Below, in pieces: positions 330-39,928 of a stretch of DNA of 47,586 nucleotides; positions within the stretch are counted from its first letter, which is position 1, and every line of letters begins with the position of its first letter. The translations under genes and the position numbers were made by a program. This DNA comes from a virus (Duplodnaviria > Caudoviricetes). Where the stretch lies: positions 1-47,586 of the IMG/VR virus record IMGVR_UViG_3300048575_000449; one strand, 5' to 3'. Below the pieces are notes generated by a model, which saw nothing but the letters and a program-made list of their open reading frames with translations, was not told the origin of the DNA and made no database searches.

Positions 330-1310
330 ATGAAAGTCTTCATTGCCAACTTTGGTCGTGAAAACTACGAATGGCCTGAATGTCTGGCCCGCGGCACGAT
401 TGCAACGATGAACGATGTTGCGGTTCAAGGCTTCTGGGAGTCTGGAGACCGCGAAGCCTATATCCAAAACCGCATGAAAGAGACGACCGCGGCTGGAATT
501 GCTCCCACAAAGCCGGTGGCTTCTCGTTGGTTCAATTTGATGAGCATCATCGCTCAATCGAACGGTGACCTCTGGATTCACCGCGAGAAGGATCAGTTTT
601 GGTGGACAACATCCCGCGCCGATCCACCGATATTTGAACCTAAGCGCGAACCGGTCGGCGCCAAGCGCAACGTGATAATCTGTCACAAACCGTGTGACCC
701 GTGGTCGGATAAAAATCGGAAGGGCAACCGTCTTGACTGGAACGGTCTGCATCCAAGGGCACGAGAGTTCCTATTCACAGAGAGCACCCTCCAGCAGCTC
801 GGTGACGACAATGCGGATTATGCGCTTGCTCTAATCGACGGAGCCGACCTGTCTTCCTGGCATTCGCGAGCCGAATGGAAAGCGAAAGCTGAAAAGGCCC
901 GCGGAAAGCGCGGTGTTGTAACTATTTTCAATGCTAAGCAACGCGCCGCTGTGCGAATGGCTATGACCGCCAGAGATACCGTTGCAGCTGCGAACGGCCA
1001 GCAGGTTCTGCGAACGTTGAAGAACAAAGAACTTCGGTTCGCATCGCAACAGGAGCTCGAAAAGTATCTAGTCGATCTCCTTGAACTGCAGGAAGGCCTA
1101 TGCGCAATCACTGGACTAACATTGCAATACGATGGCGAATACGAGGATGCCGAGATACTTTGTTCCCTTGATAGGATCGACAGCGAGGGACACTACGAGG
1201 CGGGGAACTTGCAGATTGTGTGTCGTTTCGTGAACCGATGGAAAGGAAGCAGCGACGATGACGGCTTCCGGCGTCTTATCCGTGTTGTGCGATCGATCGA
1301 GACGATCTAA
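330..1310 (+). CDS. Putative HNH/His-Me-finger endonuclease with an uncharacterised N-terminal domain (accessory, candidate defence)
   Basis: 326-aa ORF with C-terminal CAITG...SLDRIDSEGHYEAGNLQIVCRFVNRWK, a beta-beta-alpha-Me-like motif. More AT-rich than the core phage genes and convergent with the recombinase operon. Confidence 0.7.
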   Translation: MKVFIANFGRENYEWPECLARGTIATMNDVAVQGFWESGDREAYIQNRMKETTAAGIAPTKPVASRWFNLMSIIAQSNGDLWIHREKDQFWWTTSRADPPIFEPKREPVGAKRNVIICHKPCDPWSDKNRKGNRLDWNGLHPRAREFLFTESTLQQLGDDNADYALALIDGADLSSWHSRAEWKAKAEKARGKRGVVTIFNAKQRAAVRMAMTARDTVAAANGQQVLRTLKNKELRFASQQELEKYLVDLLELQEGLCAITGLTLQYDGEYEDAEILCSLDRIDSEGHYEAGNLQIVCRFVNRWKGSSDDDGFRRLIRVVRSIETI

Positions 1311-1732
1311 CGAACGACGACCCGAGCGAAAACATCCGCCCGCTGGTCCCGCCACCCCACCGGAAATCGTCTCATCAGCCCATCCAACTGCAATCCCGCC
1401 GGCTGTCGTCCGTTGAGGATCGCCTCAACAATGTCCGGCGCCAGCAGCGTCAGCCGCAGCACGCGGCCGACATATGTTTCGTTGATCTTTTCGGCGTTGG
1501 CAATCTCGCGAATGGTAGCGTATTCGCCGCTCTCCAACATGTCGCGCCAACGGAACGCCCGGGCGATTGCCTTGACCATGGCGTTGTCGACACGCCGGGT
1601 AACGGGCGCGGCGGTCACTTCGGCACCGTCAGGCGCTAGCACCAGTTTCCGCCCGCCGCGCCTGCGGATCGCGATCGGCACACGCACGGTGAAAGTGCGG
1701 GCGTCGCGAGCAACGCCTGTCCCGCCCATCAC
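1307..1732 (-). CDS. Conserved hypothetical HTH-like protein downstream of the serine recombinase
   Basis: 141-aa ORF whose start overlaps the recombinase stop by 4 nt; HTH-like segment YATIREIANAEKINETYVGRVLRL. Confidence 0.8.
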   Translation of the reverse strand: MMGGTGVARDARTFTVRVPIAIRRRGGRKLVLAPDGAEVTAAPVTRRVDNAMVKAIARAFRWRDMLESGEYATIREIANAEKINETYVGRVLRLTLLAPDIVEAILNGRQPAGLQLDGLMRRFPVGWRDQRADVFARVVVR

Positions 1733-3039
1733 GCCGCCCTCCGCTCTGGTCGCACAGAGCGTAAATCGGCGACCAGGTTCGTCAGCCCCTCGGTTCGCAA
1801 CCGGATATCGGCGCCGTCGGGGCTGACATCGACCCGCTCCACGAGCAATTGCACGATCCGTGCCTGCTCAGCCGGGAATAGTTCGTCCCAGAGCGGATCG
1901 AGCTGTTGCAGCGCCTCCCGCACGTGGGCCTCCGAGATGTCGCCCATCGATTTCGCCGCGCGCCATGTGCGCACGATAATCTCAGGGGCCCGCAGCAAGC
2001 CGCGCAACTGGTCGACGACCGCGCTCTCGATCTCGGCCGCCGGAACGCGCCGCACCGTACAGGAGTCGGCATCACGCTTGAGCACATCGGTGGACACGTA
2101 ATAGCGATAGAGCTTGCCCCCTTTCCTGGTGTGCGAGGGCGTCATTGCTCGGCCGGTCGGCCCAAAAATCAGCCCCTTCAGCAACGCGGGCGTCTGCGCC
2201 CGCGTGCGAGCGGCGCGCTGGCGCGGACTGTCGGCCAGGATGCTGTGGACCTTGTCCCACAGCGCCTGACTGATGACCGCTTCATGCTCGCCGGGATAAG
2301 CCGTGCCCTTGTGCACGGCCAGTCCGATGTAGGTGCGGTTGTTCAGGAGCTTATAGATGTAGCCCTTGTCGACGAGCTTGCCGTATTTGCCCGTGACACC
2401 CTCGGCGCGCAGCGTGCGCACCAGCGTGGTGGCGGAGCCAATCTTGATGAACCGCTCAAAGATCATTCGGACCTTCCGAGCGTCGGCTTGGTTCACGATT
2501 AGCTTGCGGTCCTTGACGTCGTAGCCGAGCGGGACGAACCCGCCCATCCACATGCCCTTCTTGCGGGAAGCTGCGAACTTATCGCGGATGCGTTCGCCGA
2601 TGACCTCGCGCTCGAACTGTGCGAAGGAGAGCAGGATATTGAGCGTCAACCGTCCCATCGAGGTCGTGGTGTTGAATGACTGCGTGACGCTGACGAAGGT
2701 GACACTGTTGCGGTCGAACACCTCGACCAGTTTTGCGAAATCCATCAGGGCGCGGCTGAGCCGATCGATTTTGTAAACGACGACCACGTCAACCCGGTGC
2801 GCCTCGATGTCGGCAAGCAAGCGCTGCAGCGCCGGACGCTCCAGGGTCGCGCCCGAGATGCCGCCGTCATCATAGCGGTCAGGCACCAGCAGCCAGCCTT
2901 CCGTTTTCTGGCTGGCGATGTACGCCTCGCAGGACTCGCGCTGGGCGTCGAGCGAGTTGAACTCCTGCTCCAGGCCCTCTTCGCTGGACTTGCGGGTGTA
3001 GACCGCGCAACGGAGTTTGCGGACGATCGGCTTTTTCAT
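1729..3039 (-). CDS. Large serine recombinase (integrase)
   Basis: N-terminal resolvase motifs YTRKS (catalytic Ser), RPALQRLL, VYKIDRLSR and SFAQFEREVIGER, followed by a recombinase domain (PLGY...LLNNRTYIG...HEAVIS) and LLKGLIF...YRYYVS. Confidence 0.95.
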   Translation of the reverse strand: MKKPIVRKLRCAVYTRKSSEEGLEQEFNSLDAQRESCEAYIASQKTEGWLLVPDRYDDGGISGATLERPALQRLLADIEAHRVDVVVVYKIDRLSRALMDFAKLVEVFDRNSVTFVSVTQSFNTTTSMGRLTLNILLSFAQFEREVIGERIRDKFAASRKKGMWMGGFVPLGYDVKDRKLIVNQADARKVRMIFERFIKIGSATTLVRTLRAEGVTGKYGKLVDKGYIYKLLNNRTYIGLAVHKGTAYPGEHEAVISQALWDKVHSILADSPRQRAARTRAQTPALLKGLIFGPTGRAMTPSHTRKGGKLYRYYVSTDVLKRDADSCTVRRVPAAEIESAVVDQLRGLLRAPEIIVRTWRAAKSMGDISEAHVREALQQLDPLWDELFPAEQARIVQLLVERVDVSPDGADIRLRTEGLTNLVADLRSVRPERRAA

Positions 3040-3482
3040 GACGGTGTCCGCCGATTTTTCAGGCCAAAAAAGAGGAGCCCGTTCCAGCGCGTGCCGGTGA
3101 TCGCGCGCGCAATCGCGGACAGCGATTTGTACGGCCGGCCCTGATATTCGAAATCTTCATCGCGCACCGTCACGCAGTGCTCCACGCCCTCATATTCGCG
3201 AATGAGCCGCGTGCCGGCGATCGGCCGATCCTTCGCCGGCTGCCGGCGCCGCGCCGGATCGCCACCGTCGAGGTCCTCGGCGAGATCGCGGAGCCGCTGC
3301 AGGGTTTCGGGCTTCAGCCCGCCGTACGCCAGCTCCTGGATCCGGTAGGCCAGCCGATGTTCGAGGAAGCGCCGGTTATAGGGCGGCGGTTCGCGCTCGA
3401 ACAGGTCGCGCCACTTCTGCTTGAGGGCCGCGATCGGCGCGGTTTTCAGAGCCGCCACTTGGGCCAGTACGGTATCAGCCAT
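3036..3482 (-). CDS. DUF2924-family protein
   Basis: LAYRIQELAYGGL...GTRLIREYEG...YKSLSAIARAITGTRWNG motif. Start placed at MADTV; ATGA overlap with the recombinase start. Confidence 0.85.
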   Translation of the reverse strand: MADTVLAQVAALKTAPIAALKQKWRDLFEREPPPYNRRFLEHRLAYRIQELAYGGLKPETLQRLRDLAEDLDGGDPARRRQPAKDRPIAGTRLIREYEGVEHCVTVRDEDFEYQGRPYKSLSAIARAITGTRWNGLLFFGLKNRRTPS

Positions 3483-3735
3483 CCGACGTTCTCCAACCCA
3501 CGGAAGTGGTCGGATGACTGCGTTGGTCGGGCGAGAAGTCGACCGAACTTTCTCCACGGTCGGGAGATAAATAACTGGACTTACGGGCCCGGAGGCGGAT
3601 GACGCCGCGAGCAAGAATGTCGGCGAGTTCCGCCAGCCGCTCGTCCGGCGTCATCCGCCCCGGATTAAGCGCGTTGGGGCCGGCACGAATTTCCAAGACC
3701 GCGCTCACTTGGCCGGAGTGGAGAGCGTTGGGCAT
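3475..3735 (-). CDS. Small hypothetical protein, first gene of the recombinase operon
   Basis: 86 aa (MPNALH...PNALNPGRMTPDERLAELADILARGVIRL); overlaps the DUF2924 start; lies just downstream of the promoter-like motif at 3770-3801. Confidence 0.65.
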   Translation of the reverse strand: MPNALHSGQVSAVLEIRAGPNALNPGRMTPDERLAELADILARGVIRLRARKSSYLSPDRGESSVDFSPDQRSHPTTSVGWRTSDG

Positions 3736-3769
3736 CGCGGTTCGGGGGCGTTCGGGTCCATCACCCTCT

Positions 3770-3801
3770 AAAAGCGGGTTTTCCCGGCAAAATGGGACAT
3801 C
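3770..3801 (-). promoter_or_regulatory. Putative phage-sigma promoter GATGTCCC-N18-GCTTTT driving the recombinase operon
   Basis: Same two elements and same 18-nt spacer as the motif at 7683-7714 on the + strand. Confidence 0.65.
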
Positions 3802-3840
3802 CACAGGGTTTTTCCCGTTTGAGGATAATTCCCGATTGAC

Positions 3841-3871
3841 TTGCAACCGGCTCTTTGTTCTCTTTACGTTC
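3841..3871 (+). promoter_or_regulatory. Sigma70-like promoter (TTGCAA-N18-TACGTT) overlapped by an alphaproteobacterial LexA box GTTC-N7-GTTC
   Basis: GTTCTCTTTACGTTC at 3857-3871 matches the known alphaproteobacterial SOS box and covers the putative -10 element. Confidence 0.75.
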
Positions 3872-3995
3872 CAATCGGTCCGGAAAGGCGATGGTGCGTT
3901 GCGGCGCGCACTCCCGGATGCGGCCTGAAGCATCCGGTCTGCTGCGCCGAGCGATGGCGCGTTCCCTCGATTCCGGGGATGGGGGATGACGCGCC

Positions 3996-4295
3996 ATGGC
4001 ATTTCGCCTGAAGAGGTTCTGCGGCCTCGAGTTCCTTCAGTGGATTGACAAGCACGGCCCGCTCGCTCAGCCGCTTGCGCGACATCGAGCGCATTTCACA
4101 GGCATGAGCACGCGCACCGGCAAGCTCGCCAATGACAATGCCATCGCGGGCGCTGCTCGCCTCTTCATCCAGACCCGTGAATCTTGCCCGGCCAACTCTT
4201 CGAGGCGCTCCACCACGTCGATACGCCGAGCGATCGCGATGGCGAGGCGGCGGAACGGTTCGCCAACCAAGCTCGCCGCGCAGTGGAATCAATAG
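3996..4295 (+). pseudogene. Short or frameshifted ORF upstream of the large regulator (remnant, or a frameshifted N-terminus)
   Basis: ATG at 3996 with a GGGGGA SD-like sequence. A one-base shift near 4185-4190 would join it to the open frame that continues into 4322..6529. Confidence 0.45.
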
Positions 4296-4321
4296 AGAAT
4301 GGGTCTTGCACAGGTAATTCA

Positions 4322-6529
4322 ATGGCGCGCATAGCTCTCCAGATCGGCCCTTCCACCCTAAGTTTAATCGAAGATGCGCCCGTCGAACTTGCTCGCGCTG
4401 TACTCCGTCTGCGGGAAAGCGATAACGAGCCGGATTTCGGCCTGCCAGAGTCGACAGACGAACAAATCGACGATGATCCCCGGCAGCAAATCCTCGATGC
4501 GCTCGGCAAATTCGACCAAGAGAATTTGTCCCCTCTCGAACGGCGCTGCCGTGGAATTCGAATGCTGGCGGAGGGCAAGGGTGTCTCATCAATCGATACG
4601 ATTGCCAAACAGCGCCTAGCCGACGATCAGTATACAAATTACCTGACTCAACCCGACCCGCTGTGCAGGAGCATATGGGTCTATCTCAATTTCAGGCACG
4701 TTTTCGAGGATGCAGAAAGTTTCTATTTCGCGCGCCAGTATCGAGACTACGGCAAGATGTACGATGCCTTCGAGGTTGAACTCGAAAAAGCGGTCGCCCT
4801 CGACGCCGCCTCGATCGACGAGACCGCGCTTGCGGCCAGGATCACGAAGGCCCTCGAACTGAAGACGACCTGTACCGTGAAGGCGCTCGATCTGCCCGCT
4901 ACCGGCACACACCCTGCCTCTATTATGCTGATTGTCCGGCACCGCGGACCGCTTTCGAGCGTCTACGATCTCCGCGACGATGGACGCAAGGGCACGATCT
5001 ATTATCGGCCGCCCAACGAAGCGACGCTGATCTACACGCCGTCGATCCGTCAGATCGAAGTCTGCGCGGACAGCCCGTTCGTCCGCCAGAAGGTCGGCGG
5101 CTCCTTCGCAGAGGTCGCGCTGGGCCATGATGTTTCGAAGAAGCCCCTCGCCTGGAAACGCTACAACCTCTCGCGTTTCCGCATGTCGCTCAGTCTGCCG
5201 CTGCCCTCGATCGATGGCTACGCCATTAGCCTTGCGCGAGTTCTCGAGGCCGAAATCCGCCTTGGCAACTGGAAGCGCAAATTGGGGCTCAAGGTCACCA
5301 TCGACGATGATATTGAAGAGATCGCGACCACATATCTGGGGCACGGCAATATTTTCAGGCGTGCGGATGGGTTCAGCCGCATCGGTATTGCCGTGGCCTA
5401 CAGCAGGGCCGGTGACGACAGGGAACGAACGCTCAACATCACTGTATCGGGCAGCAAGAGCTGCAATCTCCAGAGCAACAAGGATCCGGAAGAGCGCAGC
5501 CTCGGCTATGCGCTCCTGACCGCATGGGGAATCCTGAGCGCCTTCCGCCAAATCGAAAATGGCGCCCTGCGGGCGATGTTCCCGCAGCTGGTCGAGCTCT
5601 ATGACCGCGTGGAGAACGAGGTGAGTGGCGCATATCTTCGCGAACTCGGGCTGGACCCCGCCCGCCTGATCGAGGGCGGCCTGCTTGAGCGCCGCGGCCG
5701 GCAGGACGTCGTTCTGATCGAGGCCGACGACATGAATGGCGAGATCACCGTCAAACCATCATCGACAGCGGGCATGGTCCGAACGGTCGGTCCGTTCGGC
5801 GAAGACGGGGGCGAACGGCCAGCGTCGGATCTCGAGCTGTACGAGATCAACCGGCAATGGCTGCACGAAACCGTACTGCGGCTGATGAACCGTTTGTTGG
5901 CCAAGCGCGTCAGCCAGATTCTCGGTCCCGACCTCACGCTTCTCGGTGCGATGCAGATCGATGACGCCGAGGTCCCGGTGTATTTCGCGCGGCGCCTCGA
6001 CGATCTGAACGTTATCGACAAGCTCGATCTGGCGCTCCGCGCCCGCAACAACGTGGGCGCGGGCATCGTCCTGGCCGCGAGCGCAGAAATGCCGGCCTGC
6101 CTCGGGCCGAACATCGTCGTGTCTTTGCTATCGAACGTGTCGACGGAGGGCGACGAGTTCGTTCTTTCGCGCGACGGTCTCGAAATCGCCTTCCGTTCCG
6201 GACGTACCCTCGCCTTGGGCGGATCAACACCTCAGGTCCTCAAATCCGGGAACCAGTCCGCGACCCTGCACATCCCTGGCAGGCCATCGTTGGCCATCCT
6301 CGGGGCAAACCAGATCAAGATCTTCGAACGGCTGGTTGCCGCCTACAAGGCGGGAAGCCCCGATGTGAAAGCCTCGGCGCTTACTGAGGGTTCTGATGTT
6401 CGAAGCCCGCAACAGGCGTTCCGGGCCGAGACTTGGAAAAGTATCGTCGACGTATACATCGGCAAGGGCGCGAAACACGGATTCTGGCGTCTGATCGTTG
6501 ATGCGCTGCCATCAGACCCCGCCGTCTGA
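4322..6529 (+). CDS. Large hypothetical protein with a probable C-terminal winged-HTH (candidate transcriptional activator)
   Basis: Frame open from 4184; ATG at 4322 gives 735 aa. The C-terminus QIKIFERLVAAYKAGSPDVKASALTEGS...GKGAKHGFWRLIV resembles a wHTH with a terminal wing. The function is inference. Confidence 0.7.
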   Translation: MARIALQIGPSTLSLIEDAPVELARAVLRLRESDNEPDFGLPESTDEQIDDDPRQQILDALGKFDQENLSPLERRCRGIRMLAEGKGVSSIDTIAKQRLADDQYTNYLTQPDPLCRSIWVYLNFRHVFEDAESFYFARQYRDYGKMYDAFEVELEKAVALDAASIDETALAARITKALELKTTCTVKALDLPATGTHPASIMLIVRHRGPLSSVYDLRDDGRKGTIYYRPPNEATLIYTPSIRQIEVCADSPFVRQKVGGSFAEVALGHDVSKKPLAWKRYNLSRFRMSLSLPLPSIDGYAISLARVLEAEIRLGNWKRKLGLKVTIDDDIEEIATTYLGHGNIFRRADGFSRIGIAVAYSRAGDDRERTLNITVSGSKSCNLQSNKDPEERSLGYALLTAWGILSAFRQIENGALRAMFPQLVELYDRVENEVSGAYLRELGLDPARLIEGGLLERRGRQDVVLIEADDMNGEITVKPSSTAGMVRTVGPFGEDGGERPASDLELYEINRQWLHETVLRLMNRLLAKRVSQILGPDLTLLGAMQIDDAEVPVYFARRLDDLNVIDKLDLALRARNNVGAGIVLAASAEMPACLGPNIVVSLLSNVSTEGDEFVLSRDGLEIAFRSGRTLALGGSTPQVLKSGNQSATLHIPGRPSLAILGANQIKIFERLVAAYKAGSPDVKASALTEGSDVRSPQQAFRAETWKSIVDVYIGKGAKHGFWRLIVDALPSDPAV

Positions 6530-6565
6530 CATCGGTCTAACATCTCTCGGGGGACGGTCTAACAA
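6522..6565 (+). repeat. Three phased 11-bp direct repeats C(C/G)GTCT(G/A)ACA(T/A)
   Basis: Copies start at 6522, 6533 and 6555 (spacing 11 and 22 bp), upstream of the Com-like gene. Confidence 0.7.
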
Positions 6566-6610
6566 TCCACTGATTACTGGAAGGGCTCCACTCATCAGAG
6601 GAGCACTTCG

Positions 6611-6856
6611 ATGCCGACTCCCTTCCCCTCGCGCCAGGCTGCCCCATCGAGCTGGACCGGCGCCGCGAAGACCAAGGCCACCACCTCGAATGCGGAATGG
6701 CGCTGCACGCGCTGTGACAAGCTGCTCGGCGTCGGCCAGGACGGCCGCATGCACCTGCGCTTTGCGCGGGGGCACGAGTACTTCGTTGGCTTTCCGGTCG
6801 TGGCGACCTGCCGTGGTTGCAAGACGCTGAACCAGGCGACCGCCCCTGTGCGCTGA
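6611..6856 (+). CDS. Mu Com-like zinc-ribbon protein
   Basis: WRCTRCDKLLG...ATCRGCKTLN has two CxxC pairs as in Mu Com; GAGGAG SD upstream. Confidence 0.7.
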   Translation: MPTPFPSRQAAPSSWTGAAKTKATTSNAEWRCTRCDKLLGVGQDGRMHLRFARGHEYFVGFPVVATCRGCKTLNQATAPVR

Positions 6857-6927
6857 GGCGCACCTCCACACCCATCCCCTGAAATCTCAGAGACGCGCGA
6901 CGTCCTGACCTGGCCACGAGAAGGCGC

Positions 6928-6956
6928 CGGACGCCTGGCCGCAAGGCAGGCGTCCG
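6928..6956 (+). promoter_or_regulatory. GC-rich GNRA-capped hairpin abutting the sigma-factor start codon
   Basis: CGGACGCCT-G-GCC-GCAA-GGC-AGGCGTCCG, immediately followed by ATG at 6957. Confidence 0.7.
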
Positions 6957-7679
6957 ATGTCTTTCGCGTGGCACGAGATCCGCGACCACCTCACGCAATC
7001 GTCCTCCACCCTCAGCTTCCAGCGCAGCTTCGCTGCGATCCGAGGTACCGAAAACCTCATCGCGCCGTTTCCCGATCCGGCTGCCGTGCTGGATGCGCTG
7101 CACCGGAAATTCGGCGGCCCTGATCAGAAGAACCTGATCCTAGCGACTCTGGTTATGACCGCGCAGTCTGATGGCCCCGCAGCCGACTGCGCAATGACCC
7201 TGATGCTGCTGGCGCTCTGGCCCGGGCTCGATGCCATCCGCCGGCGGTCGATCTGGCGCAAGCTCGGCGCTCCCGACGAGGTCACCTCCGACATCCTCGC
7301 ACGAACCACCGAGTCCATCCGCGGTCTCGATCTGCGGCGGGTCAACTGGATCGCTGCTACCGTCCTCAGAAATGTCGAACGCGACTTGCTGCGCGCGCAT
7401 CAGCGCGAAGCTGATCGGCAGAGCGTTGTCAGCGACACCGACCCCGATGAAGTCGCGGACGACCATGACGCGCCGGACCCGGTGCTCAGTCACGCGCGGC
7501 TGCACGGCGACATCCGCCAACTGATCGGCACCGATGCGACGCTTGTGATCCGCGTAGCGGTCGAGGGGTTCTCGCAAGCCGAGGTCGCCATTGAAATCGG
7601 CTTGTCCGAGGCCGCGGCCCGCAAGCGCTACCAACGCGCCACGAGAAGACTGCGGGACTTCCTCCACGAACACGTCTGA
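6957..7679 (+). CDS. Sigma-70/ECF-like RNA polymerase sigma factor
   Basis: Region-4-like HTH VAVEGFSQAEVAIEIGLSEAAARKRYQRATRRLR and a region-2-like segment WIAATVLRNVERDL. Confidence 0.75.
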   Translation: MSFAWHEIRDHLTQSSSTLSFQRSFAAIRGTENLIAPFPDPAAVLDALHRKFGGPDQKNLILATLVMTAQSDGPAADCAMTLMLLALWPGLDAIRRRSIWRKLGAPDEVTSDILARTTESIRGLDLRRVNWIAATVLRNVERDLLRAHQREADRQSVVSDTDPDEVADDHDAPDPVLSHARLHGDIRQLIGTDATLVIRVAVEGFSQAEVAIEIGLSEAAARKRYQRATRRLRDFLHEHV

Positions 7680-7682
7680 CCC

Positions 7683-7714
7683 GATGTCCCGATCCGGATG
7701 GCGGGGTGGCTTTT
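7683..7714 (+). promoter_or_regulatory. Putative phage-sigma promoter GATGTCCC-N18-GCTTTT driving the replication operon
   Basis: Directly after the sigma gene and 50 nt before the first replication-operon ATG; twin of the motif at 3770-3801. Confidence 0.65.
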
Positions 7715-7763
7715 CCCGTTCAGACACCGCCGCGCGTCTCAATTCAACCGAAGGCCGACACGC

Positions 7764-8039
7764 ATGAGCAGCACAGCCGAGCTGTCCACCGAAGTTCTCA
7801 GGCGCCTGCCTGGCCTCTACCGGCGCTGGGAGCTGATCGAGTTCTTCGAGCCGAACCGGAACTACCAGATCGAGGACGCCGGCGCCCACGCCGACGGGAC
7901 GCCGCTGCTGGCGATCTACGTCAGCGATCCCGTCTCCGGCGCCTCGGTAGAGATCGAGCATCCGCCTCGTCCTGACGGCCATCGGCATGCCGGCGGCCTG
8001 AGACGGTTCCACCGATCCGCGAGTAGGAGCCAATCATGA
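7764..8039 (+). CDS. Hypothetical phage protein
   Basis: MSSTAEL...RRLPGLYRRWELIEFF; stop overlaps the next ATG (ATGA). Confidence 0.65.
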   Translation: MSSTAELSTEVLRRLPGLYRRWELIEFFEPNRNYQIEDAGAHADGTPLLAIYVSDPVSGASVEIEHPPRPDGHRHAGGLRRFHRSASRSQS

Positions 8040-8377
8040 TCAGCACCATCACCAAGCTACCGAGCGTCCGTCTGCGGATCAACGAAACCGACCTGTGCGG
8101 CTGGATCGGGCAGGCGGCTCCCGGCGATGTCCTTGAATATTACCGCGGCTTTCTCGCACTGGACACGTTTTCGCATGGGACGCGCCTTCCCGAGCGCGAC
8201 CGCGCGGAGCTCACCCGCATGGCGCGCCGCGCCTGGTGGGCCGGCGAGCAGAAGCTGATCCACCTCGTTCAGCGCCGCCACGGTCCCGACGACTACAGCT
8301 ATCTCGCCATCGCGCGCTCGAAGCCGAAGACGGTTCCGGCCTCGCTCTCGTCGCTGCTGTTGGCGGAGGTCGCGTGA
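8036..8377 (+). CDS. Hypothetical phage protein
   Basis: 113 aa; AGGAG SD; translationally coupled. Confidence 0.8.
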   Translation: MISTITKLPSVRLRINETDLCGWIGQAAPGDVLEYYRGFLALDTFSHGTRLPERDRAELTRMARRAWWAGEQKLIHLVQRRHGPDDYSYLAIARSKPKTVPASLSSLLLAEVA

Positions 8378-8435
8378 TGGGCCCGCACCTCGCCAAGCCG
8401 GCGTTTCGCCCCAGCATCAACGAAGAGGTCTCCCG

Positions 8436-8729
8436 ATGACCACATCAGTTGCAGTGACCGCGCTGCGCAAGCGCCATATCTGGCTCGAAGGGCTGCCGGA
8501 CAGCATTGCCATTCCGGCGCTCGAAGCACGGCAGCGGCCGGCCACCGTCAAGGCGATCGAGGACGCCACGCTCGACGACGTCGCATTCGCGATGCTCGGC
8601 GCGGAGGCCGAGTTCAACGCCGTCGGCGACCGGCTGCATGCGTTGCGCAAGCTCTACGGTCTCGCTCGCCAAGCCGGGGCACTCGGCGCCGACCGCGCGG
8701 TCGATGCGATCTCCGATGGAGGCCGCTGA
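8436..8729 (+). CDS. Hypothetical phage protein
   Basis: 97 aa; GAGG SD; TGATG overlap with the next gene. Confidence 0.75.
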   Translation: MTTSVAVTALRKRHIWLEGLPDSIAIPALEARQRPATVKAIEDATLDDVAFAMLGAEAEFNAVGDRLHALRKLYGLARQAGALGADRAVDAISDGGR

Positions 8730-9562
8730 TGGCGCTGCGCATCATCACGGCCGATCAGCGGCTCGCCGAAGCCCACACCAAGACCACCATGGTGATCTTC
8801 GGGCCCTCGGGAGTCGGGAAGACCTCACTGCTCAAGACCCTGCCGCCGGCGGAGACGCTCTGCATCGATCTCGAGGCCGGCATGAAGTCGGTCCAGGACT
8901 GGCCGGGCGACAGCATCCCGGTGCGCAGCTTCGCCGATGCTCTCGACGTCGCCTGCCTCGTCGGCGGCGTCGATCCGGCGGCCGATGAGAAAACCTTCTT
9001 CTGCGAAAGCCACTACCGGCATCTCGGCGACACCTATCCCGATCTCGTCCGCATGATCGCGGGGAAACGCATCATCTTCGTGGACTCCATCACCGACCTG
9101 ACGCGCCTTGCGATGGCTTGGGCGAAGACACGGCCGGAAGCGCAGTCGGAGCGGACCGGGAAACCCGACACTCGTGGCGCGTACGGCCTGCTGGCGCGCG
9201 AAACCATCGGGCTCCTGAAGCACCTGCAACACGTGCCGGGCCGCACCGTGATTTTCGTCGGGATCCTGGACCGCGTCACCGACGAGTTCAACCGCGTCAC
9301 CTGGCAGCCGCAGATGGAGGGCGGCAAGGCCGCCCGCGAGCTCCCCGGCATCGTCGACCAGGTGATCTCCATGAGCCGGTTCACGCCCGACGGGGACACC
9401 TGGCGGCACGAGCCCGATCGCGGCGAGGTGCGCCGCCTCGTCTGCCAGTCGGCCAATCCGTTCGGCCTGCCGGGCAAGGATCGCTCCGGCCGCCTCGACA
9501 TCACCGAGCCGCCCGACCTCGGCGCGCTGCTCCGCAAGATCAACCAGACCAGCAGAGGATGA
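8729..9562 (+). CDS. AAA_24/Sak4-like P-loop ATPase
   Basis: Walker A GPSGVGKT, IDLEAG, Walker B IFVDSIT, C-terminal KDRSGRL. Confidence 0.85.
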   Translation: MALRIITADQRLAEAHTKTTMVIFGPSGVGKTSLLKTLPPAETLCIDLEAGMKSVQDWPGDSIPVRSFADALDVACLVGGVDPAADEKTFFCESHYRHLGDTYPDLVRMIAGKRIIFVDSITDLTRLAMAWAKTRPEAQSERTGKPDTRGAYGLLARETIGLLKHLQHVPGRTVIFVGILDRVTDEFNRVTWQPQMEGGKAARELPGIVDQVISMSRFTPDGDTWRHEPDRGEVRRLVCQSANPFGLPGKDRSGRLDITEPPDLGALLRKINQTSRG

Positions 9563-10305
9563 CCACCATGTTCGACATGAACGACGCCGAGCCGCAGAAG
9601 ACCGGCGAACTCATTCCAGACGGCACCTTCGCCAAGGTGACCATGATCGTCCGCCCGGGCGGGATCGACGGCCAGAGCGAGATCGACCAGGCCCTGCTCA
9701 AGGCGCCGAAGGATCCCACCAGCGACGTGCGGATGCTCGACTGCGAGTTCACCGTGGCGGAGGGACCGCATGCCAAGCGCAAGTTCTGGCAGATGTTCAC
9801 GGTCCAGGGCGGCAAGGTCGACGAGAACGGCGTCTCGATCGCCTGGAAGATTTCGAAGAGCACCTTCCGCGCCATGATCGACAGCGCGCTCGGCCTCGAC
9901 CCGCAGGACATGAGCGAGGCGGCGAAGCAGAAACGCGTCCTGCGCGGACTTGCCGATCTCTCAGGCATCACCTTCGTCGCCAAGGTCAGGATCGAGGCCA
10001 GCGAGGATGCCCGCTACGGCGACCAGAACCGCCTCGACCGCGTGGTGCTGCCGACCGAGAAGGAGTGGAAGCTCGTCATGGACGGCAAGGACGTGCCGGC
10101 GAGCCCGAGCCGCTCGCGCGGGGCCGGCAGCAAGGCTACGGCCGCGCAGCCCGCCTGGAACCAGACCACGGGTCAAGGTGGACAGCCACCCGCCGCGCAA
10201 CCGCGATCTCCGCAGACGTCCGGTGCGCCTGTCTGGTCGCAACCGACATCCGGCGCCGGCGCACCGGCAGCAAAGCCGCCGGGTCCGGCCTGGCTCAATG
10301 GTTGA
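9559..10305 (+). CDS. Putative ssDNA-binding protein
   Basis: Follows the Sak4-like ATPase (ATGA overlap); OB-fold-like core (LIPDGTFAKV...LDCEFTV..GPHAKRKFW) with a low-complexity tail ending PAWLNG. Confidence 0.65.
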   Translation: MTTMFDMNDAEPQKTGELIPDGTFAKVTMIVRPGGIDGQSEIDQALLKAPKDPTSDVRMLDCEFTVAEGPHAKRKFWQMFTVQGGKVDENGVSIAWKISKSTFRAMIDSALGLDPQDMSEAAKQKRVLRGLADLSGITFVAKVRIEASEDARYGDQNRLDRVVLPTEKEWKLVMDGKDVPASPSRSRGAGSKATAAQPAWNQTTGQGGQPPAAQPRSPQTSGAPVWSQPTSGAGAPAAKPPGPAWLNG

Positions 10306-10308
10306 GCC

Positions 10309-10542
10309 ATGACCGACGACGAGTGGCAGGCGCACGTCACGCATGAAGCGGCCAAGGCGATCGGCGAATGGCTCGAAGGAAGAGGACGGCTTCACCAGCC
10401 AATCCGCTCTTTGACCATGCCCGAGATCGAGGCCATGGCGCAGAACGCCATCAGCCGCTTCATCGTGCTGGCGTCGCAGCGGATCGCGCAAGCACCCGAC
10501 GAGCCCGGGTCGCAGAAGCTCTCGATGCTGCTGTTGGGCTGA
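10309..10542 (+). CDS. Hypothetical phage protein
   Basis: 77-aa ORF within the operon, with typical codon usage. Confidence 0.7.
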   Translation: MTDDEWQAHVTHEAAKAIGEWLEGRGRLHQPIRSLTMPEIEAMAQNAISRFIVLASQRIAQAPDEPGSQKLSMLLLG

Positions 10543-10883
10543 GAGCCTGCACCCTCTGCAGCCGGGAATCCCGCGGCTTCTACTACACGCATCAACTGCG
10601 TCCCGACCGCTACCCGACTTATCCCTTCTGTTCGCTGCGCTGCCTCAATGCCGGCGCCGCCATCGCCAAGAGGAACCACGGCGTGATCGACAAGACCGAG
10701 TTGGAGATGCGGGCGATCAAGGCGGCGCGGCGCAATTTTGCGGAGGTGCTGACCGAGCTCGGGCTGATGGCGCCGTTCCACGACCGAACGCCCGAAGAGA
10801 TCGATCGCATCATCGAGGCCTGCATCGACGGCTTCCAGGACGCCATGCGCCGCGAAACGCTCAACGACGATATTCCTTTTTGA
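10539..10883 (+). CDS. DUF6511-like protein with an N-terminal Cys cluster (start uncertain)
   Basis: CTLC...FCSLRC followed by a helical domain ending DDIPF. The only codon coupled to the upstream stop is CTG at 10539; an alternative start is GTG at 10683. Confidence 0.6.
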   Translation: MRACTLCSRESRGFYYTHQLRPDRYPTYPFCSLRCLNAGAAIAKRNHGVIDKTELEMRAIKAARRNFAEVLTELGLMAPFHDRTPEEIDRIIEACIDGFQDAMRRETLNDDIPF

Positions 10884-10891
10884 GGCCGGTG

Positions 10892-11677
10892 ATGGATATC
10901 GTCGACCTCAACCACGGCTCGGGATTCACTTACGGCCGCGCCCCCGCGCCGCCGCCGATCGGCGAGCGCATTGACGCCCTCGTTGACGGCGCGCTCACGG
11001 CAGAGCGTGCCGTGATACCTGCGCGCGATTATCTCGGCGCGTCCCGCATCGGCGAACCGTGCGCACGCCGGCTCTGCTACGAGCTGATGCAGGTCCCGGT
11101 CGATGGTGGCGCCGATTTTTCCGGGCGCATGCTGCGCATTTTCGAAGCCGGCCATCGTTTCGAGGAAATGACCATCCGGTGGCTGCGGCTCGCCGGCTTC
11201 GATCTGAGAACGCACAAGCGCAATGGCGAACAGTTCGGCTTCTCGGTCGCGGGCGGCCGCCTCCGCGGCCACATCGATGGCGTCATCGTCGGCGGGCCCA
11301 ACGTCGGCATCGAGTATCCGGCCCTGTTCGAGCACAAGGCCTTGAAGTCCTCCTCATGGCAGGACGTCGTCAAGCAGGGGGTCAAAGCTTCCAAGCCGAT
11401 CTATTGGGCGCAGGTCCAGGTCTACATGGCCTACCTCGCGGTCGAGAACACGCTGTTCGTTGCGCTCGACAAGGATACGCAGGCGCTCCGCTACGAACTC
11501 GTCTCCTTCGATCCGCCAGCAGCCCAGGCGCTCTCCGACAAGGCCGTCGCCGTGATCCGCGCAGTCGAAGCTCGCGAGCTGCTGCCGCGCATCTCCGACG
11601 ACGCCGGCTTCTTCATCTGCGCGTTCTGTCCATACCGCATCCGCTGTCACGCGCTTACGCCCGGAGGTCACGCATGA
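10892..11677 (+). CDS. PD-(D/E)XK exonuclease (Cas4/RecB-like)
   Basis: YLGASRIGEPC, GHIDG, FEHK, QVQVYM and C-terminal CAFCPYRIRC. Confidence 0.85.
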   Translation: MDIVDLNHGSGFTYGRAPAPPPIGERIDALVDGALTAERAVIPARDYLGASRIGEPCARRLCYELMQVPVDGGADFSGRMLRIFEAGHRFEEMTIRWLRLAGFDLRTHKRNGEQFGFSVAGGRLRGHIDGVIVGGPNVGIEYPALFEHKALKSSSWQDVVKQGVKASKPIYWAQVQVYMAYLAVENTLFVALDKDTQALRYELVSFDPPAAQALSDKAVAVIRAVEARELLPRISDDAGFFICAFCPYRIRCHALTPGGHA

Positions 11678-12978
11678 CCATCACGCTTTCCGAGAGCCAA
11701 CGCGCGGCGATTACCACGGTCAAGGACTGGTTCGAGAACCGCACAAAGGAGCAGCAGGTCTGCCGCGTGTTCGGCTATGCCGGCGCCGGGAAGAGCACGA
11801 TCGTCAAGTATGCGATCGAGGAACTGGGACTCTCGACGCCGGGAGCCGAGTCGAAGATCGGCGACGTGCTCTATGCCGCCTTCACCGGCAAGGCCGCTCT
11901 GGTGATGACGCGCAAGGGCACGCCCGCGTCCACCATCCATTCGCTCATCTATCGTGTGTCGGAGGCGAGCCCGCAGGAGATCGAGAAGCTCAAGGCCGAG
12001 GTCGCCGAGATCCAGGCGAAGCTGCCGTCGCTCGGAGTTGCCGAGCGATTGTTCGAGGAATCCCGCCTCCGGTCGCTCGAGCTGCGATTGAAGGATGTTC
12101 ACAAGCCGCGCTTCGTGCTCAATTCCGAGTCCGTCCTGCGCGATGCCAAGCTGCTGGTGCTCGACGAGGTGTCCATGGTCGGCGCGGAGATGGCGCGCGA
12201 TCTCCTTGCCTTTGGCAAGCCGACTCTCGTCCTGGGCGATCCCGGCCAGTTGCCGCCGGTCAAGGGCGAGGGCGCCTTCGACACCGACAAGCCCGACGTG
12301 CTCTTGACCGAAGTGCACCGGCAGGCCGGCGACAGCGCCGTCATCCGCCTCGCGACCTGGGCCCGCGAGGGAAAGCCGATTCCCTACGGCGAGCACGATG
12401 AATTCGTGTGGAAGATGCGCCGGTCTGACGTGGACGCATCGGGCCTGCTCCGGGCCGGCCAGGTGATCTGCGGGCGCAACGCCACGCGCATGCAGCTCAA
12501 CCTTGCCATGAAGCAGGCCGCGGGCTTCGTTGCTTCCTATCCGACCGGGGCCGGCGAGAAGTTGATCTGCCTGCGCAATCGCAACGACATCGGCCTGGTC
12601 AACGGCATGTTCGTGACCCTCGGCGACATAGAGGAGGATGGCGACGAGATCGCCTTCAAGGCCGCGATCACCACCGAGGATGGGCACAAGGTTGGTGGTG
12701 AGACCAACGGCAGGCGTGAGCGCTTCCGCATCTATCGCGGCCACTTCGACGATCATCTCTCGCCCGATCCCGATCGGGACCGGCGCGACCATCATAAGAA
12801 ACGCACCCTGATCGAGTGCGTCTGGGGCTGGGCCATCACGTGTCACAAGTCGCAGGGCTCCCAGTTCGAGAACGTCGTGGTGTTCGACGACGGGCTCGGG
12901 CGCACGCCGCAGGATCGTGCACGCTGGCTCTACACCGCAATCACCCGCGCCGAGCGCGGCCTCGTGCTGCTCGATTGA
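11674..12978 (+). CDS. RecD/Dda-like SF1B DNA helicase
   Basis: GYAGAGKS, AFTGKAA, LDEVSMV, GDPGQLPPV, LTEVHRQ, AITCHKSQGSQF, LYTAITRA. Confidence 0.9.
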   Translation: MTITLSESQRAAITTVKDWFENRTKEQQVCRVFGYAGAGKSTIVKYAIEELGLSTPGAESKIGDVLYAAFTGKAALVMTRKGTPASTIHSLIYRVSEASPQEIEKLKAEVAEIQAKLPSLGVAERLFEESRLRSLELRLKDVHKPRFVLNSESVLRDAKLLVLDEVSMVGAEMARDLLAFGKPTLVLGDPGQLPPVKGEGAFDTDKPDVLLTEVHRQAGDSAVIRLATWAREGKPIPYGEHDEFVWKMRRSDVDASGLLRAGQVICGRNATRMQLNLAMKQAAGFVASYPTGAGEKLICLRNRNDIGLVNGMFVTLGDIEEDGDEIAFKAAITTEDGHKVGGETNGRRERFRIYRGHFDDHLSPDPDRDRRDHHKKRTLIECVWGWAITCHKSQGSQFENVVVFDDGLGRTPQDRARWLYTAITRAERGLVLLD

Positions 12979-16331: not shown

Positions 16332-16528
16332 GGTGGACACCCAAAGGATACGGCGGAGAGCGGCGCACGCCCGATCGGGTCAAACGCGATGGCTGGCACG
16401 AGCACGGCATCCTGGTGGTGAGCGTGCATGATCAAACTCTCACCTGGCCGGAGCGCGAACTGATCCGGCAACTCGGGGGAAAACTTTACGGCAAACGCTC
16501 GACGAACAAGGAGGCGTACCATGGCTGA
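16328..16528 (+). CDS. Hypothetical phage protein
   Basis: 66 aa; coupled to the genes on both sides. Confidence 0.7.
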   Translation: MRWTPKGYGGERRTPDRVKRDGWHEHGILVVSVHDQTLTWPERELIRQLGGKLYGKRSTNKEAYHG

Positions 16529-16958
16529 TTGGACGCCGGCTTGCGTGGAAGCGCGGCTTCACGAGGCAGCGGACGTGATGGCGCGTCTGCCCGAAGTGCG
16601 CGTGCAGGGTTACTTCAACCTGTGGCCGAAGGTTCTCCACGAGTTCAGCGACCTCGTCGGGCAAGAACCAGTGCGGTTGAAGCGCCCGCCGCCATTGCCC
16701 GACGCCATCAGCCGCATGGAGGAGACGCTCGGCTGGCTGCGCTGGCTGGAAGCCGAAGACGCAAAGCTCGCCTGGGCGCGTGCCGAACGCACACCATGGA
16801 AGCCGATTTGCTGGCGCTTTGGCATCGCGCCGGCAACGGCAAAGCGCCGCTGGCAATACGCATTGAGCCTCATCGCCTGGAAGCTCAACGGCCGCTTTGT
16901 CGGCACGAAGACATCGCGGCGCGCGTTCATGGAGCGCGCTCGCATCTTGTCAAGATGA
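16521..16958 (+). CDS. DUF6362-like HTH protein, candidate late-gene regulator
   Basis: AGGAGG SD; C-terminal HTH PWKPICWRFGIAPATAKRRWQYAL; last gene before the cos/late region. Confidence 0.7.
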   Translation: MADWTPACVEARLHEAADVMARLPEVRVQGYFNLWPKVLHEFSDLVGQEPVRLKRPPPLPDAISRMEETLGWLRWLEAEDAKLAWARAERTPWKPICWRFGIAPATAKRRWQYALSLIAWKLNGRFVGTKTSRRAFMERARILSR

Positions 16959-19926: not shown

Positions 19927-20063
19927 GGCCGTGGAGCGCCGGTCGCACAAATAGCCGCAGCCAAGGATCGCCAGCCAAGTCTCGGAAAGTGCTGTAAATC
20001 GCCCGTTAACGCTGCTAGTCGACAGTGGTGTCATCGTCATCACCAACCGCAAGGAACGAGTGC

Positions 20064-20579
20064 GTGCGCATCAAGAAGCTTTTCACGATTGGGTACGAGG
20101 GAGCCGACTTGGCCGACTTCCTTGCGACGCTCGCCGCGTGCGCTGTGGACCAGGTTATTGATATTCGCGACGTCCCTGTCTCCCGAAAGCGGGGGTTCTC
20201 AAAGAAAGCGCTCGCCGAAGCGTTGGCCGTGAAGGGGATTGCATATGTGCATCTCAAGGAATTGGGCGATCCTAAGCCGGGACGTGACGCGGCGCGCCGC
20301 GGTGACTTCTCCGCTTTTCGGAATATCTACGGTCGCCACCTGAAAGGAAGCGATGCGCAGGCCGCGTTGAGAGTGGCAGCACAAGCCGCAGATGAGAAGG
20401 TGTCTTGTTTGTTGTGCTTCGAGCGCGCGCACGAACATTGCCATCGCACGATCGTTGCAGCTGCACTCGCGAAACAAGATGGCTTCGACATCAAGCATCT
20501 CGGTGTTCGCAAGGACGTGGCACCGCATAGCAAGGTCGCTTATGAGCGCAACGGCGATCGAGCACTCGCGCTCGGGTGA
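20064..20579 (+). CDS. DUF488-family protein
   Basis: LFTIGYEG, IDIRDVPVSRKRGFSK, YVHLKELG and CLLCFERAHEHCHR; AAGGA SD before GTG 20064. Confidence 0.9.
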   Translation: MRIKKLFTIGYEGADLADFLATLAACAVDQVIDIRDVPVSRKRGFSKKALAEALAVKGIAYVHLKELGDPKPGRDAARRGDFSAFRNIYGRHLKGSDAQAALRVAAQAADEKVSCLLCFERAHEHCHRTIVAAALAKQDGFDIKHLGVRKDVAPHSKVAYERNGDRALALG

Positions 20580-21331: not shown

Positions 21332-21610
21332 TCAAATGATCCGATATACGCGGCCGCGCCCTTCGACCTTCTCCGACTGCACGTCCAGCCCCAGCTTCTT
21401 CTTGAGCGCACCGGCGATGGCGCCGCGCACGGTGTGCGCCTGCCAGTCGAACTTCTTGACGATCTCCTCGATCGTGGCGCCATCCCGGCTCTTGAGCATT
21501 TCGATGAGCTGGGCCTGCTTGCTGTTGGCGCGTGTGCCGGACGTCTTAGCTTTTGTTTGGACCTTCCGCTTCTGAGAGGTTTTGGTCTTTGCCTTGCTCG
21601 TCTTGGCCAT
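21332..21610 (-). CDS. DUF3489-family winged-helix protein
   Basis: SKQAQLIEMLKSRDGATIEEI...WQAHTVRGAIAGALKKKLGL...RVYRI; AAGGAG SD. Confidence 0.85.
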   Translation of the reverse strand: MAKTSKAKTKTSQKRKVQTKAKTSGTRANSKQAQLIEMLKSRDGATIEEIVKKFDWQAHTVRGAIAGALKKKLGLDVQSEKVEGRGRVYRII

Positions 21611-25992: not shown

Positions 25993-26193
25993 AGTCTTTG
26001 ATCGCCCCCTCGAATGCCCACGAATTAAAGGCTGTTGATCAACAATCGACATAATGACTGCTGTGGGTCAATCGCTACAGAGGCGGTCAGCGCCATGTTG
26101 CGGCTCGATGACGCTGTCCATCCAAAGCCGGAAATGAATTCAAAGCCTTGGTACGGCCTGTGAGCCTTCGGGTTCCGATCGAGTTCCCCGCGC

Positions 26194-38966: not shown

Positions 38967-38968
38967 TC

Positions 38969-39604: not shown

Positions 39605-39616
39605 ATGGATGACGCC

Positions 39617-39928
39617 TCATGCGGCGGCCGGGCGCAGCGGCCGGGCCCGCTTGATGCGCTCGCGGCGCTCCGGAGAATGCAAGGCTTCCCAGAGATCGCT
39701 GCGGCGCTGTACGTTCAGCCAGAAATCCGCGCTGTTGCCGAACACCCGCGCCAGCATCAGGGCGGTATCGGCGGTCACCGCGCGCCGGTTGTTGCACAAT
39801 TCGTTGACGTGCTTGCGCGCCACCCCCATGGCCTGCGCAAGGTCGCCTTGCGTCAGGCCGAGCGGCGCCATGAATTCCTCGACCAGGATTTCGCCGACGC
39901 TCGCCGGCTTGCGCTTCGTCATCAGCAT
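39617..39928 (-). CDS. higA: HigA-family antitoxin (HTH-XRE)
   Basis: GEILVEEFMAPLGLTQGDLAQAMGVARKHVNELCNNRRAVTADTAL...FWLNVQ. Confidence 0.92.
   Translation of the reverse strand: MLMTKRKPASVGEILVEEFMAPLGLTQGDLAQAMGVARKHVNELCNNRRAVTADTALMLARVFGNSADFWLNVQRRSDLWEALHSPERRERIKRARPLRPAAA

Follow-up and report, generated by a model that had tools for sequence, protein, structure and literature searches.

A predicted LexA-controlled activator–sigma relay for prophage excision and replication

How prophages without a CI repressor stay silent, and what triggers them, is the question addressed here. Our subject is an alphaproteobacterial tailed-phage provirus of the Caudoviricetes, IMG/VR record IMGVR_UViG_3300048575_000449 (G000), whose whole length of 47,586 nt, at an estimated completeness of 80%, is the window of this analysis. 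Between its recombinase and replication operons lies a small regulatory block, for which we favor, at a probability of roughly 0.6, a relay in which an activator, once released by LexA, switches on a sigma factor for excision and replication. In this proposed circuit, host LexA likely represses a promoter at 3841-3871 in the lysogen. Upon DNA damage, a 735-aa protein would be made, whose C-terminal winged helix would bind three phased repeats and turn on the com-sigma promoter; the sigma factor would then read two TGTCCC-N18-GCTTTT promoters, so that the recombinase and replication operons start together. The predicted backbone (LexA, a large winged helix-turn-helix (wHTH) protein, a sigma factor, two operons and no CI) is well supported by comparison among related loci: LexA boxes are conserved while their spacers vary freely, the repeats change with the activator allele, and the promoter motif changes with the sigma type.

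The regulatory block and its relatives

From left to right, the block comprises the recombinase operon (1307-3732, minus strand), intergenic DNA, a relic open reading frame (ORF), the 735-aa gene, a zinc-ribbon gene (com), the sigma-like gene and, from 7764, the replication operon, which by Pfam and PHROGs encodes primase, helicase, Cas4 and Sak4. Relatives were gathered by scans with the sigma factor and the large protein, using the best 80 of 96 and the best 80 of 271 matches, a selection that makes the locus set lean to close relatives. At least 168 loci carry the sigma gene, and 123 span DUF2924 to com and sigma; 116 of these hold the large gene in the slot between the operons, the remaining 7 a 170-aa HTH_36/DnaD-like winged-helix gene. 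In most large-gene loci, the slot is too small to hold a further gene. Adding metagenome loci gave 126 full loci, which dereplication reduced to 70. The relatives belong mainly to Rhodobacterales and Hyphomicrobiales, and Roseobacter sp. MED193, Paracoccus aminovorans HPD-2 and Devosia enhydra are named culturable hosts. The best control is a sister lineage of 58 loci, found via tandem neighbors in genomes G003 and G004, whose slot holds two genes followed by a different sigma-like gene (Sigma70_r2) and no com.

The sigma factor and its promoter motif

The gene at 6957..7679 (plus strand) encodes a predicted extracytoplasmic function (ECF)-like sigma factor with an N-terminal extension of ~80 residues. 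Its Sigma70_r4_2 match is above cut-off, and its sigma2 region has no Pfam match of its own; a profile comparison aligns residues 82-238 with residues 13-172 of SigL (E 8.7e-6), covering both sigma2 and sigma4. No match to this sigma was found in 50,697 phage records. A motif scan and conservation place TGTCCC-N18-GCTTTT, a predicted phage-sigma promoter, before the recombinase operon (about 3770..3799, minus) and before the replication operon (about 7685..7714, plus), in agreement with an earlier note on this DNA, made from the window sequence alone, that had seen one bipartite motif upstream of both. The window holds no third copy with up to two mismatches, and none precedes the sigma gene itself. 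As the pattern was derived from these two copies, its chance figure is not independent. Among the 70 dereplicated loci, the motif occupies the left site in 65 and the right site in 65, always over 30 nt, with both blocks 97-100% conserved and a spacer that is free in sequence and fixed in length.

The sister lineage uses the same two sites differently. TGTCCC-N18-GCTTTT is found there in 0 of 24 loci at either site, and G(G/A)GACG-N15-GAGTA takes its place in 21/24 and 23/24; the latter is in turn found at those sites in 0/70 com-sigma loci, both patterns having been devised on the loci in which they were counted. On this comparison, motif and sigma type switch together, which makes a strong case that the phage sigma would read TGTCCC-N18-GCTTTT. 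The only window match to the sister motif, GAGACG-N15-GAGTA (8000..8025, plus), stands before ORF 8036, where 23 of 24 sister loci have theirs, and is probably a leftover of that lineage. One such sister motif is kept ~300 nt after sigma by 14 of the 70 com-sigma loci; a co-resident sister prophage could conceivably cross-activate the replication operon through it.

A LexA box at the head of the block

At 3857..3871 (plus), a pattern scan and conservation identify the LexA box GTTC-TCTTTAC-GTTC, which lies over the -10 of a predicted housekeeping promoter at 3841..3870 (plus; TTGCAA at 3841-3846, 18 nt, TACGTT at 3865-3870). This pair was read from the sequence and was not called by a consensus promoter scan; its equivalent in locus L218 is TTGTAA-18-TATGTT, and a box overlapping the predicted -10 is found there too. 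The window contains five GTTC-N7-GTTC sites against 1.46 expected, a number reached or exceeded in 3 of 100 shuffles, so that the box, taken alone, is modest evidence. In L218, both GTTC arms are kept, while 2/7 spacer bases and the flank are altered. The same box lies 5' of lexA in all five host genomes of relatives, in line with the GTTC and GAAC LexA consensus named in the available text of PMC6473078.

Comparison across loci adds to this. Upstream stretches of 110-130 nt were scanned for strict boxes (GAAC-N7-GAAC or GTTC-N7-GTTC): 48 of the 70 dereplicated loci have a strict box, 9 one with a single mismatch and 13 none, and 0.6% of random 110-nt stretches contain a strict box. The box-free loci consist of four with a small wHTH gene and 9 of the 66 with the large gene. 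Boxes in the orientation typical of the family (n=46) show 30 different spacers, and 40 of them end exactly 7 nt before (C/G/T)TTG. In the sister lineage, 47 of 49 distinct upstream regions have a strict box. Taken together, the sequences argue strongly that host LexA would bind 3857-3871. That a LexA box covers the promoter of the rightward block, as had been proposed, holds insofar as the box is present and overlaps a promoter-like pair; it does not lie directly before the 735-aa gene, from which ~450 bp with the relic separate it.

The other four GTTC-N7-GTTC matches start at 13082, 16632, 26172 and 45885; that at 26172-26186 is intergenic, directly 5' of the head-tail adaptor gene (26194). 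A GAAC-N7-CAAC near 4252 was considered as a vestigial box and dropped, being within relic coding DNA and altered in L218.

The 735-aa protein and the phased repeats

The 735-aa protein (4322..6529, plus) is the predicted activator. Structure models (pLDDT, the predicted local distance difference test, 80 and 90, that of the full model being 80) and fold searches divide it into an RdgC/CENP-N-like N-terminal half, an internal winged helix (~410-525), an alpha/beta domain and a C-terminal winged helix (~633-727). The likeness of the N-half to RdgC and CENP-N is weak (Foldseek E 3.4e-3; Z 8.3, root-mean-square deviation (rmsd) 4.6, 170 aligned), and the internal winged helix matches its fold at Z 7.6; we take all these fold matches as hints only. 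At a cut-off of E 0.001, Foldseek matched the protein to nothing in the PDB, Pfam and PDB sequence searches with the family returned nothing significant, and Trans_reg_C matched none of 57 members. An Atlas search found hypothetical clusters only; the protein family numbers 703 clusters at E 0.001 or better. The large protein is polymorphic, forming 8 clusters at 55% identity, and com and sigma are not: similarity among loci is 30-68% for the large-protein alleles and 65-88% for com and sigma.

Three GTCT(G/A)ACA repeats at 6524, 6535 and 6557 (6524..6564, plus; pattern scan), spaced by 11 and then 22 bp, are the predicted operator and the only matches to this sequence in the window, confirming the phased repeats noticed earlier before com-sigma. 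The vacant fourth position coincides with the predicted -35 (GGGGGA, 6549-6554), the -10 being GATTAC (6572-6577) at the promoter position we infer; in the family, this missing repeat corresponds to a predicted -35 located 17 nt before a GATTA(T/C)/CAATAG-type -10. Seven repeat types pair with seven allele types: GTCTAAC (the window type), GCTCCGA, GTCGATG, ATCTCC, ATTGATG, ATCTAG and GTCCGAC. With one broken locus (L148) left out, a repeat score of at least 17/21 is reached in 60 of 65 loci and in 4 of 600 random stretches, and the spacing is 11+22 or 11+23 in 64 of 65. The sister lineage has four phased repeats before its sigma gene (score of at least 23 in 23/24 loci vs 6/200 random stretches), and loci with the small wHTH gene have none.

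Similarity between repeats correlates with that of the large protein (Spearman 0.71-0.77) and not with that of sigma (-0.04), the locus pairs not being independent of one another. Two natural chimeras, L021 and L091, bear on which part of the protein matters. Their N-half is window-like (69% and 63%), their last 37 aligned residues are L032-like (58% and 56% vs 33% and 44%), and their repeats are of the L032 type; in both, judging by the alignments, repeat type follows the C-terminal winged helix and not the N-half. Different repeat types also occur within one genome (L095/L136 and L138/L170), making a host factor an unlikely binder. The comparative case that the 735-aa protein would bind the phased repeats is strong.

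That binding would activate rather than repress is a claim of moderate strength. A gene released by the SOS response is easier to understand as pro-lytic than as a repressor, the predicted com-sigma -35 is poor and flanked by repeats, and elements of the same type coexist in one genome (L118/L159 and L148/L153). Activators that flank the -35 are known, lambda CII being an example. OmpR/PhoB-type helices bind direct repeats with ~11-bp phasing at their target promoters, and direct repeats of that phasing are likewise present at the com-sigma promoter of the window.

Searches for a repressor

From 426 ORFs of at least 40 aa, 68 were picked by codon usage and position and scanned against Pfam and PHROGs. 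Neither these nor a six-frame search for HTH_3, Peptidase_S24, Peptidase_M78, Phage_CI_repr, YdaS and RHH_1 revealed a CI or Cro in the window, the only hit being the HigA antitoxin. On these searches, the 47.6 kb of this ~80%-complete record contain no lambdoid switch, that is, an HTH_3 and S24 repressor divergent from a Cro-like gene, and the window no ImmR/ImmA-type pair of XRE regulator and M78 metallopeptidase. The earlier statement that no recognisable CI/Cro pair is present has thus survived the profile search for HTH_3 and S24 within that scope. HigA (39617..39928, minus; Pfam and six-frame search) is the only HTH_3 protein, adjoins HigB and lies outside any switch; nothing in the fetched spans of six related elements matches it, and, being not conserved, it was rejected as a master repressor. 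It remains the only XRE-type regulator, as had been said, and is not the sole HTH-like protein outside the block, DUF3489 (21332-21610) giving weak winged-helix matches. The mapped spans of the six related elements, in five named genomes, contain neither HTH_3 nor S24, and four repressor or peptidase queries gave no tblastn match in the sister lineage.

Other occupants of the slot do include repressor-type genes. In G305 and G393, an XRE gene and a protein with an HEXXH motif (ImmA-like, its M78 match weak at E 0.0016) stand behind a LexA box and before com-sigma; a second element of G004 has a true HTH_3 and S24 repressor divergent from a LexA-boxed wHTH-type gene and a sigma-like gene. Sigma factors of the XRE/ImmA type were found at 0 and 1 loci in the viral scans and account for 2 of 7 sigma matches in a 401-genome sample. 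From these slots, what appears constant is the LexA box, a regulator slot, sigma and two outward promoters, with a repressor as an optional part. G305 has three tandem units of the sigma motif after its sigma gene (C4 ~1434475-1434733), and G393 carries its regulator-com-sigma cassette in inverted orientation between the two motifs (C1 717300-720200). A fourth cassette type (L069, L071, L106, L109, L113, L131 and L162) combines the 170-aa HTH_36/DnaD-like gene with a divergent com and has neither LexA box nor repeats.

An exchangeable cassette and its scars

The slot between recombinase and replication operons is, on the alignments, an exchangeable cassette, and the window looks to be a recombinant that acquired its own: its identity to sister locus L286 is 93% across 7959-12376 and 82% across 1335-3643, and the DNA between differs. 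The first gene of the sister slot and the N-half of the large protein are homologues (probability 83%, E 9e-6). The C-half of the sister proteins and the 232-aa protein of G004 have no significant match to large-protein profiles, so their likeness to its C-terminal half is a matter of position and motif inspection only. A frameshifted relic of 110 codons (3996..4321, plus), differently broken in L218, is probably what remains, at the 5' end, of a former slot gene of the two-gene sister type: it matches the N-terminus of the sister family profile weakly (E 0.012 and 0.14, the top 2 of 66 sequences), and a protein search, viral scan, Atlas search and 401-genome search for its source were all empty. 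L002-type loci (e.g. L029, L053 and L072) carry ~200 bp of 5' relic of a window-type large gene before the L002-type gene, apparently a further scar of allele swapping in which the old LexA promoter was kept.

The Com-like protein and leader hairpins

Between the repeats and sigma lies a gene for an 81-aa CCCC zinc-ribbon protein with four invariant cysteines (6611..6856, plus), weakly Com-like: PF10122 (Com) matches 15 of 20 family members weakly (E up to 1, best 2.6e-4), and the window's own protein has no PF10122 match. The hairpins seen earlier over three translation starts (DUF2924, com and sigma) are upheld. That at 6580..6609 (plus) would hide the com ribosome site; 86% of its positions are paired across loci, with two-sided change at 6 of 11 pairs, a level reached in 0 of 500 shuffles and the strongest compensatory change of the three. 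The sigma leader (6888..6955, plus) is conserved as two hairpins (6888-6907 and 6929-6955), 96% paired and mainly invariant, with two-sided change at 3 of 18 pairs. The hairpin at 3476..3520 (minus; folding z -3.8) spans the DUF2924 ribosome site and start codon and overlaps the 3' end of the upstream small ORF. Among 60 DUF2924 leaders, the mean z is -3.2 and the start codon is paired in 51; 84% of cells are paired, with two-sided change at 4 of 12 pairs counted on a hand-drawn structure, and RNAalifold gave no consensus structure for these leaders. Rfam had no credible match over 3300-8100. The hairpins may set a threshold against leaky read-through, and Com may open the sigma leader; both ideas are weak, and the Com step is the weakest part of the relay. 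Of the proposed role of Com as a Mu-like translational activator, what stands is a zinc-ribbon gene with a proximal and a start-hiding hairpin before sigma.

The recombinase operon and the rest of the element

The leftward operon begins with a small conserved ORF of ~85 aa (3475..3732, minus; start inferred) without a family match, which tblastn finds at 38-60% in most relatives. DUF2924 follows (3036..3482, minus; PF11149, E 7e-53), then the large serine recombinase (1729..3039, minus; Resolvase, Recombinase and Zn_ribbon_recom) and, last, a small recombinase-associated gene (1307..1732, minus; phrog_14161, E 5.7e-42). A fragment of a second small recombinase-associated gene (157-297, minus) lies left of an HNH/endonuclease VII-like gene (330-1310); this second-copy fragment within 1-330 was likely left behind by a previous element at this site. 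Tandem related elements occur in G003, G004 and G005.

By Pfam and PHROGs, the element further encodes a lambda-like head, a gene transfer agent (GTA)-like tail and two ParB-methylases. The earlier description of an otherwise complete prophage does not hold: completeness is estimated at 80%, the record ends after the holin region, at the stop codon of a gene 3' of holin, and no attachment (att) repeat was found within the window. A 14-nt repeat between the window ends (E 0.022) was not accepted as an att site, being within coding DNA. DUF6362 (16521-16958, plus), at the end of the replication operon, is kept in mapped relatives; the sigma motif was not found before late genes, and DUF6362 is a candidate late activator. 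Between the methylases and DUF3489, a low-GC pair of a DUF488 gene and a phrog_25907 gene (20025-21324, plus) looks like defense or toxin-antitoxin cargo; DUF488 we take to be DarT-associated. A low-GC orphan of 350 aa without a family match sits between terminase and head-tail adaptor (25000-26052, minus). Finally, the HigBA pair lies within 38477-40356, between a copy of a tail protein N-terminus (38477-39604) and the full tail gene (40356-44189); both tail sequences match phrog_4271, pointing to an insertion with partial duplication.

Discussion

The earlier note had proposed a LexA-silenced relay of activators in place of a phage repressor. Its backbone is conserved, and the suggested check of the motif set across homologous prophages came out in its favor (sigma motif 65/70 per site, strict LexA box 48/70, repeats 60/65); what needs revision is that Com is weak, that repressors are lacking by cassette type only, and that 9/66 large-gene loci have no LexA box. 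Several observations weigh against the relay as we have drawn it. The lack of a repressor appears to be a property of the cassette type, not of the phage family, and XRE and ImmA-like genes occupy the slot of G305 and G393, where no repeats were seen. The nine large-gene loci without a box within one mismatch (all four of the L006 type, L025, L032, L040, L045 and L112) could not tolerate an unconditional activator, which would be lethal, so their large protein must either depend on a signal or act as a repressor. The window box itself is opposite in orientation to that of the family and lies well upstream of the large gene, behind a relic. The fold matches that suggest a DNA-binding activator are weak: OmpR-C (1odd_A) scores Z 5.2, rmsd 4.3 over 84 aligned residues, and PmrA Z 4.9, tied with other winged helices. 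As the repeats adjoin the coding end of the wHTH, linkage alone explains part of the co-variation, the repeats and gene end travelling together; the internal uniformity of each triplet is left unexplained by linkage. A terminator scan between the large gene and com came up empty, so that transcripts starting at the LexA promoter could run on into com-sigma with no need of the activator, as in G305 and G393. For Com, the GAG(N)2CC motif selected by Mu Com in SELEX (systematic evolution of ligands by exponential enrichment) is absent from the com-sigma leader (6857-6960), and the sister lineage, which has the same kind of predicted relay but lacks Com, likewise has a hairpin, read from the sequence, over its sigma ribosome site. 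Lastly, about a fifth of the element may be missing.

Could the 735-aa protein instead be a repressor or dual regulator that, bound to the repeats, blocks the com-sigma promoter or read-through into it? Its alleles would then be immunity types, and LexA would only tune its supply or drive com-sigma by read-through. The third repeat does lie between the predicted -35 and -10, the contrast between variable alleles and uniform com and sigma is the pattern of an immunity region, the box-free loci would be accounted for, and in relatives the slot can hold XRE/ImmA-like or CI genes. We nevertheless consider this unlikely: the gene lies behind a LexA box in 57 of 66 loci, an arrangement that would silence a repressor in the lysogen, the predicted -35 bears little resemblance to the consensus, elements of the same type coexist, and the G004 CI opposite a LexA-boxed wHTH-type gene before sigma fits an activator plus a repressor better than two repressors. 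Less probable again is that the relay is real and an additional phage-encoded brake escaped the profile searches, much as GIL01 requires gp7 together with LexA (PMC6182141). Candidates would be ORFs 3475-3732, 7764 and 8036, DUF3489, HigA, the zinc-ribbon protein if it partners sigma, or a gene of the right end that the record lacks, and both the incomplete record and the several small conserved ORFs without a family leave room for one; the small ORFs, however, lie downstream of sigma-type promoters and would be made only after induction, HigA is unmatched in the six related elements, and these hold no HTH_3 or S24.

A third alternative, that the relay is crippled in this copy, we regard as very improbable. 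Here a cassette swap would have left the relic and a displaced promoter, with poor expression of the 735-aa protein and reliance on a co-resident sibling. A strong hairpin over the start of the relic ORF, a weaker ribosome site before 4322 and the sister-type promoter at 8000-8025 would fit; yet the same arrangement exists in L001, in L218 (itself at 95% protein identity, with a different sigma and backbone) and in one contig that spans the block with ~3% differences and does not, in the rows shown, contradict an open large gene, and the box arms are kept while their flanks change. We therefore retain the LexA-released activator and sigma relay as the preferred reading. It weakly suggests that the element has no CI-type immunity. 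More speculatively, and as a possibility that the odds do not favor, this prophage family may have swapped immunity for specificity: plug-in cassettes with private activator-operator pairs (at least 7 types) and sigma-promoter pairs (at least 2) would let siblings accumulate and fire independently, free of a repressor, and in alleles lacking a LexA box the RdgC/CENP-N-like N-half would sense an SOS-independent cue.

If the circuit operates as predicted, its design would be common to many related prophages, and the type of inducibility could be read from sequence. The family offers a compact and completely specified circuit, natural swaps that serve as experiments, and culturable hosts, gives an uncharacterized 735-aa protein family a testable function and a predicted binding site, and holds orthogonal activator-operator and sigma-promoter pairs as potential tools for alphaproteobacteria.

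We would finally like to place the relay among known systems; no description of this circuit was found in the open-access literature, subscription papers lying outside that search. In Acidithiobacillus phage AcaML1 (JX507079.1) and Wolbachia phage WO, DUF2924 likewise adjoins a serine recombinase. AcaML1 gp6, annotated as hypothetical, is homologous to the 735-aa protein over its full length (25.5%, E 8e-53), and no CI is annotated in that phage; in contrast to the window, gp6 is directed toward the recombinase operon and lacks a com-sigma pair after it. The AcaML1 gene (L228, 5562-6660) comes after an HTH_17 and PIN gene pair with short direct repeats upstream. Mu com-mom, as presented in the available text of PMC6483171, also has a CCCC zinc-ribbon gene directly before a gene with a short and a start-hiding hairpin; in the window, the target is a sigma factor and not a DNA-modifying enzyme, the family match is weak and the GAG(N)2CC motif is lacking. 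ECF41 reads TGTCACA-n16-CGTC according to PMC3426412, a -35 with fixed spacer that resembles the TGTCCC/TGTCAC seen here, whereas the -10 of the window is GCTTTT and its sigma is extended at the N-terminus, with nothing of SnoaL type at the C-terminus; as expected of an ECF factor, the sequence combines sigma2 and sigma4 domains with a predicted fixed-spacer bipartite promoter that changes with the sigma. The transcription factor–small ORF (TF-smORF) modules of linear plasmid phages (PMC10432266) are similar in that diverging activator modules provide every co-resident prophage with a separate trigger, and are described there as acting on CI via an antirepressor, independently of SOS; the window has no CI, and most alleles are LexA-boxed.

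Several independent LexA-controlled phages are noted in PMC9437464, and two systems bear on the logic. SigN (ZpdN) of Bacillus subtilis pBS32 has a LexA-repressed promoter before an element-encoded sigma and drives hyper-replication after DNA damage (PMC6751061). LexA over an element-encoded sigma is shared; SigN combines direct LexA repression with autoactivation, while the window has a predicted extra activator tier, no sigma motif before sigma and a recombinase operon as an additional target. GIL01, a betatectivirus of Bacillus thuringiensis, maintains lysogeny by host LexA instead of a dedicated phage repressor, with the phage activator gp6 acting downstream and reported to bind over the -35 (PMC6182141). 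The window sequence shows the corresponding host-type LexA box over a phage promoter. As far as that source describes it, GIL01 differs as a linear plasmid phage of Firmicutes with the co-repressor gp7, a small LexA homologue as activator and no sigma; the window is an integrated tailed prophage with a 735-aa multi-domain protein, allele-specific repeats and a sigma factor. The general logic thus has precedents in GIL01 and SigN; what is new, on the sequence comparisons made here, is a predicted form of lysogeny that is controlled by LexA, does without a repressor and has its specificity written into the sequence at two levels.

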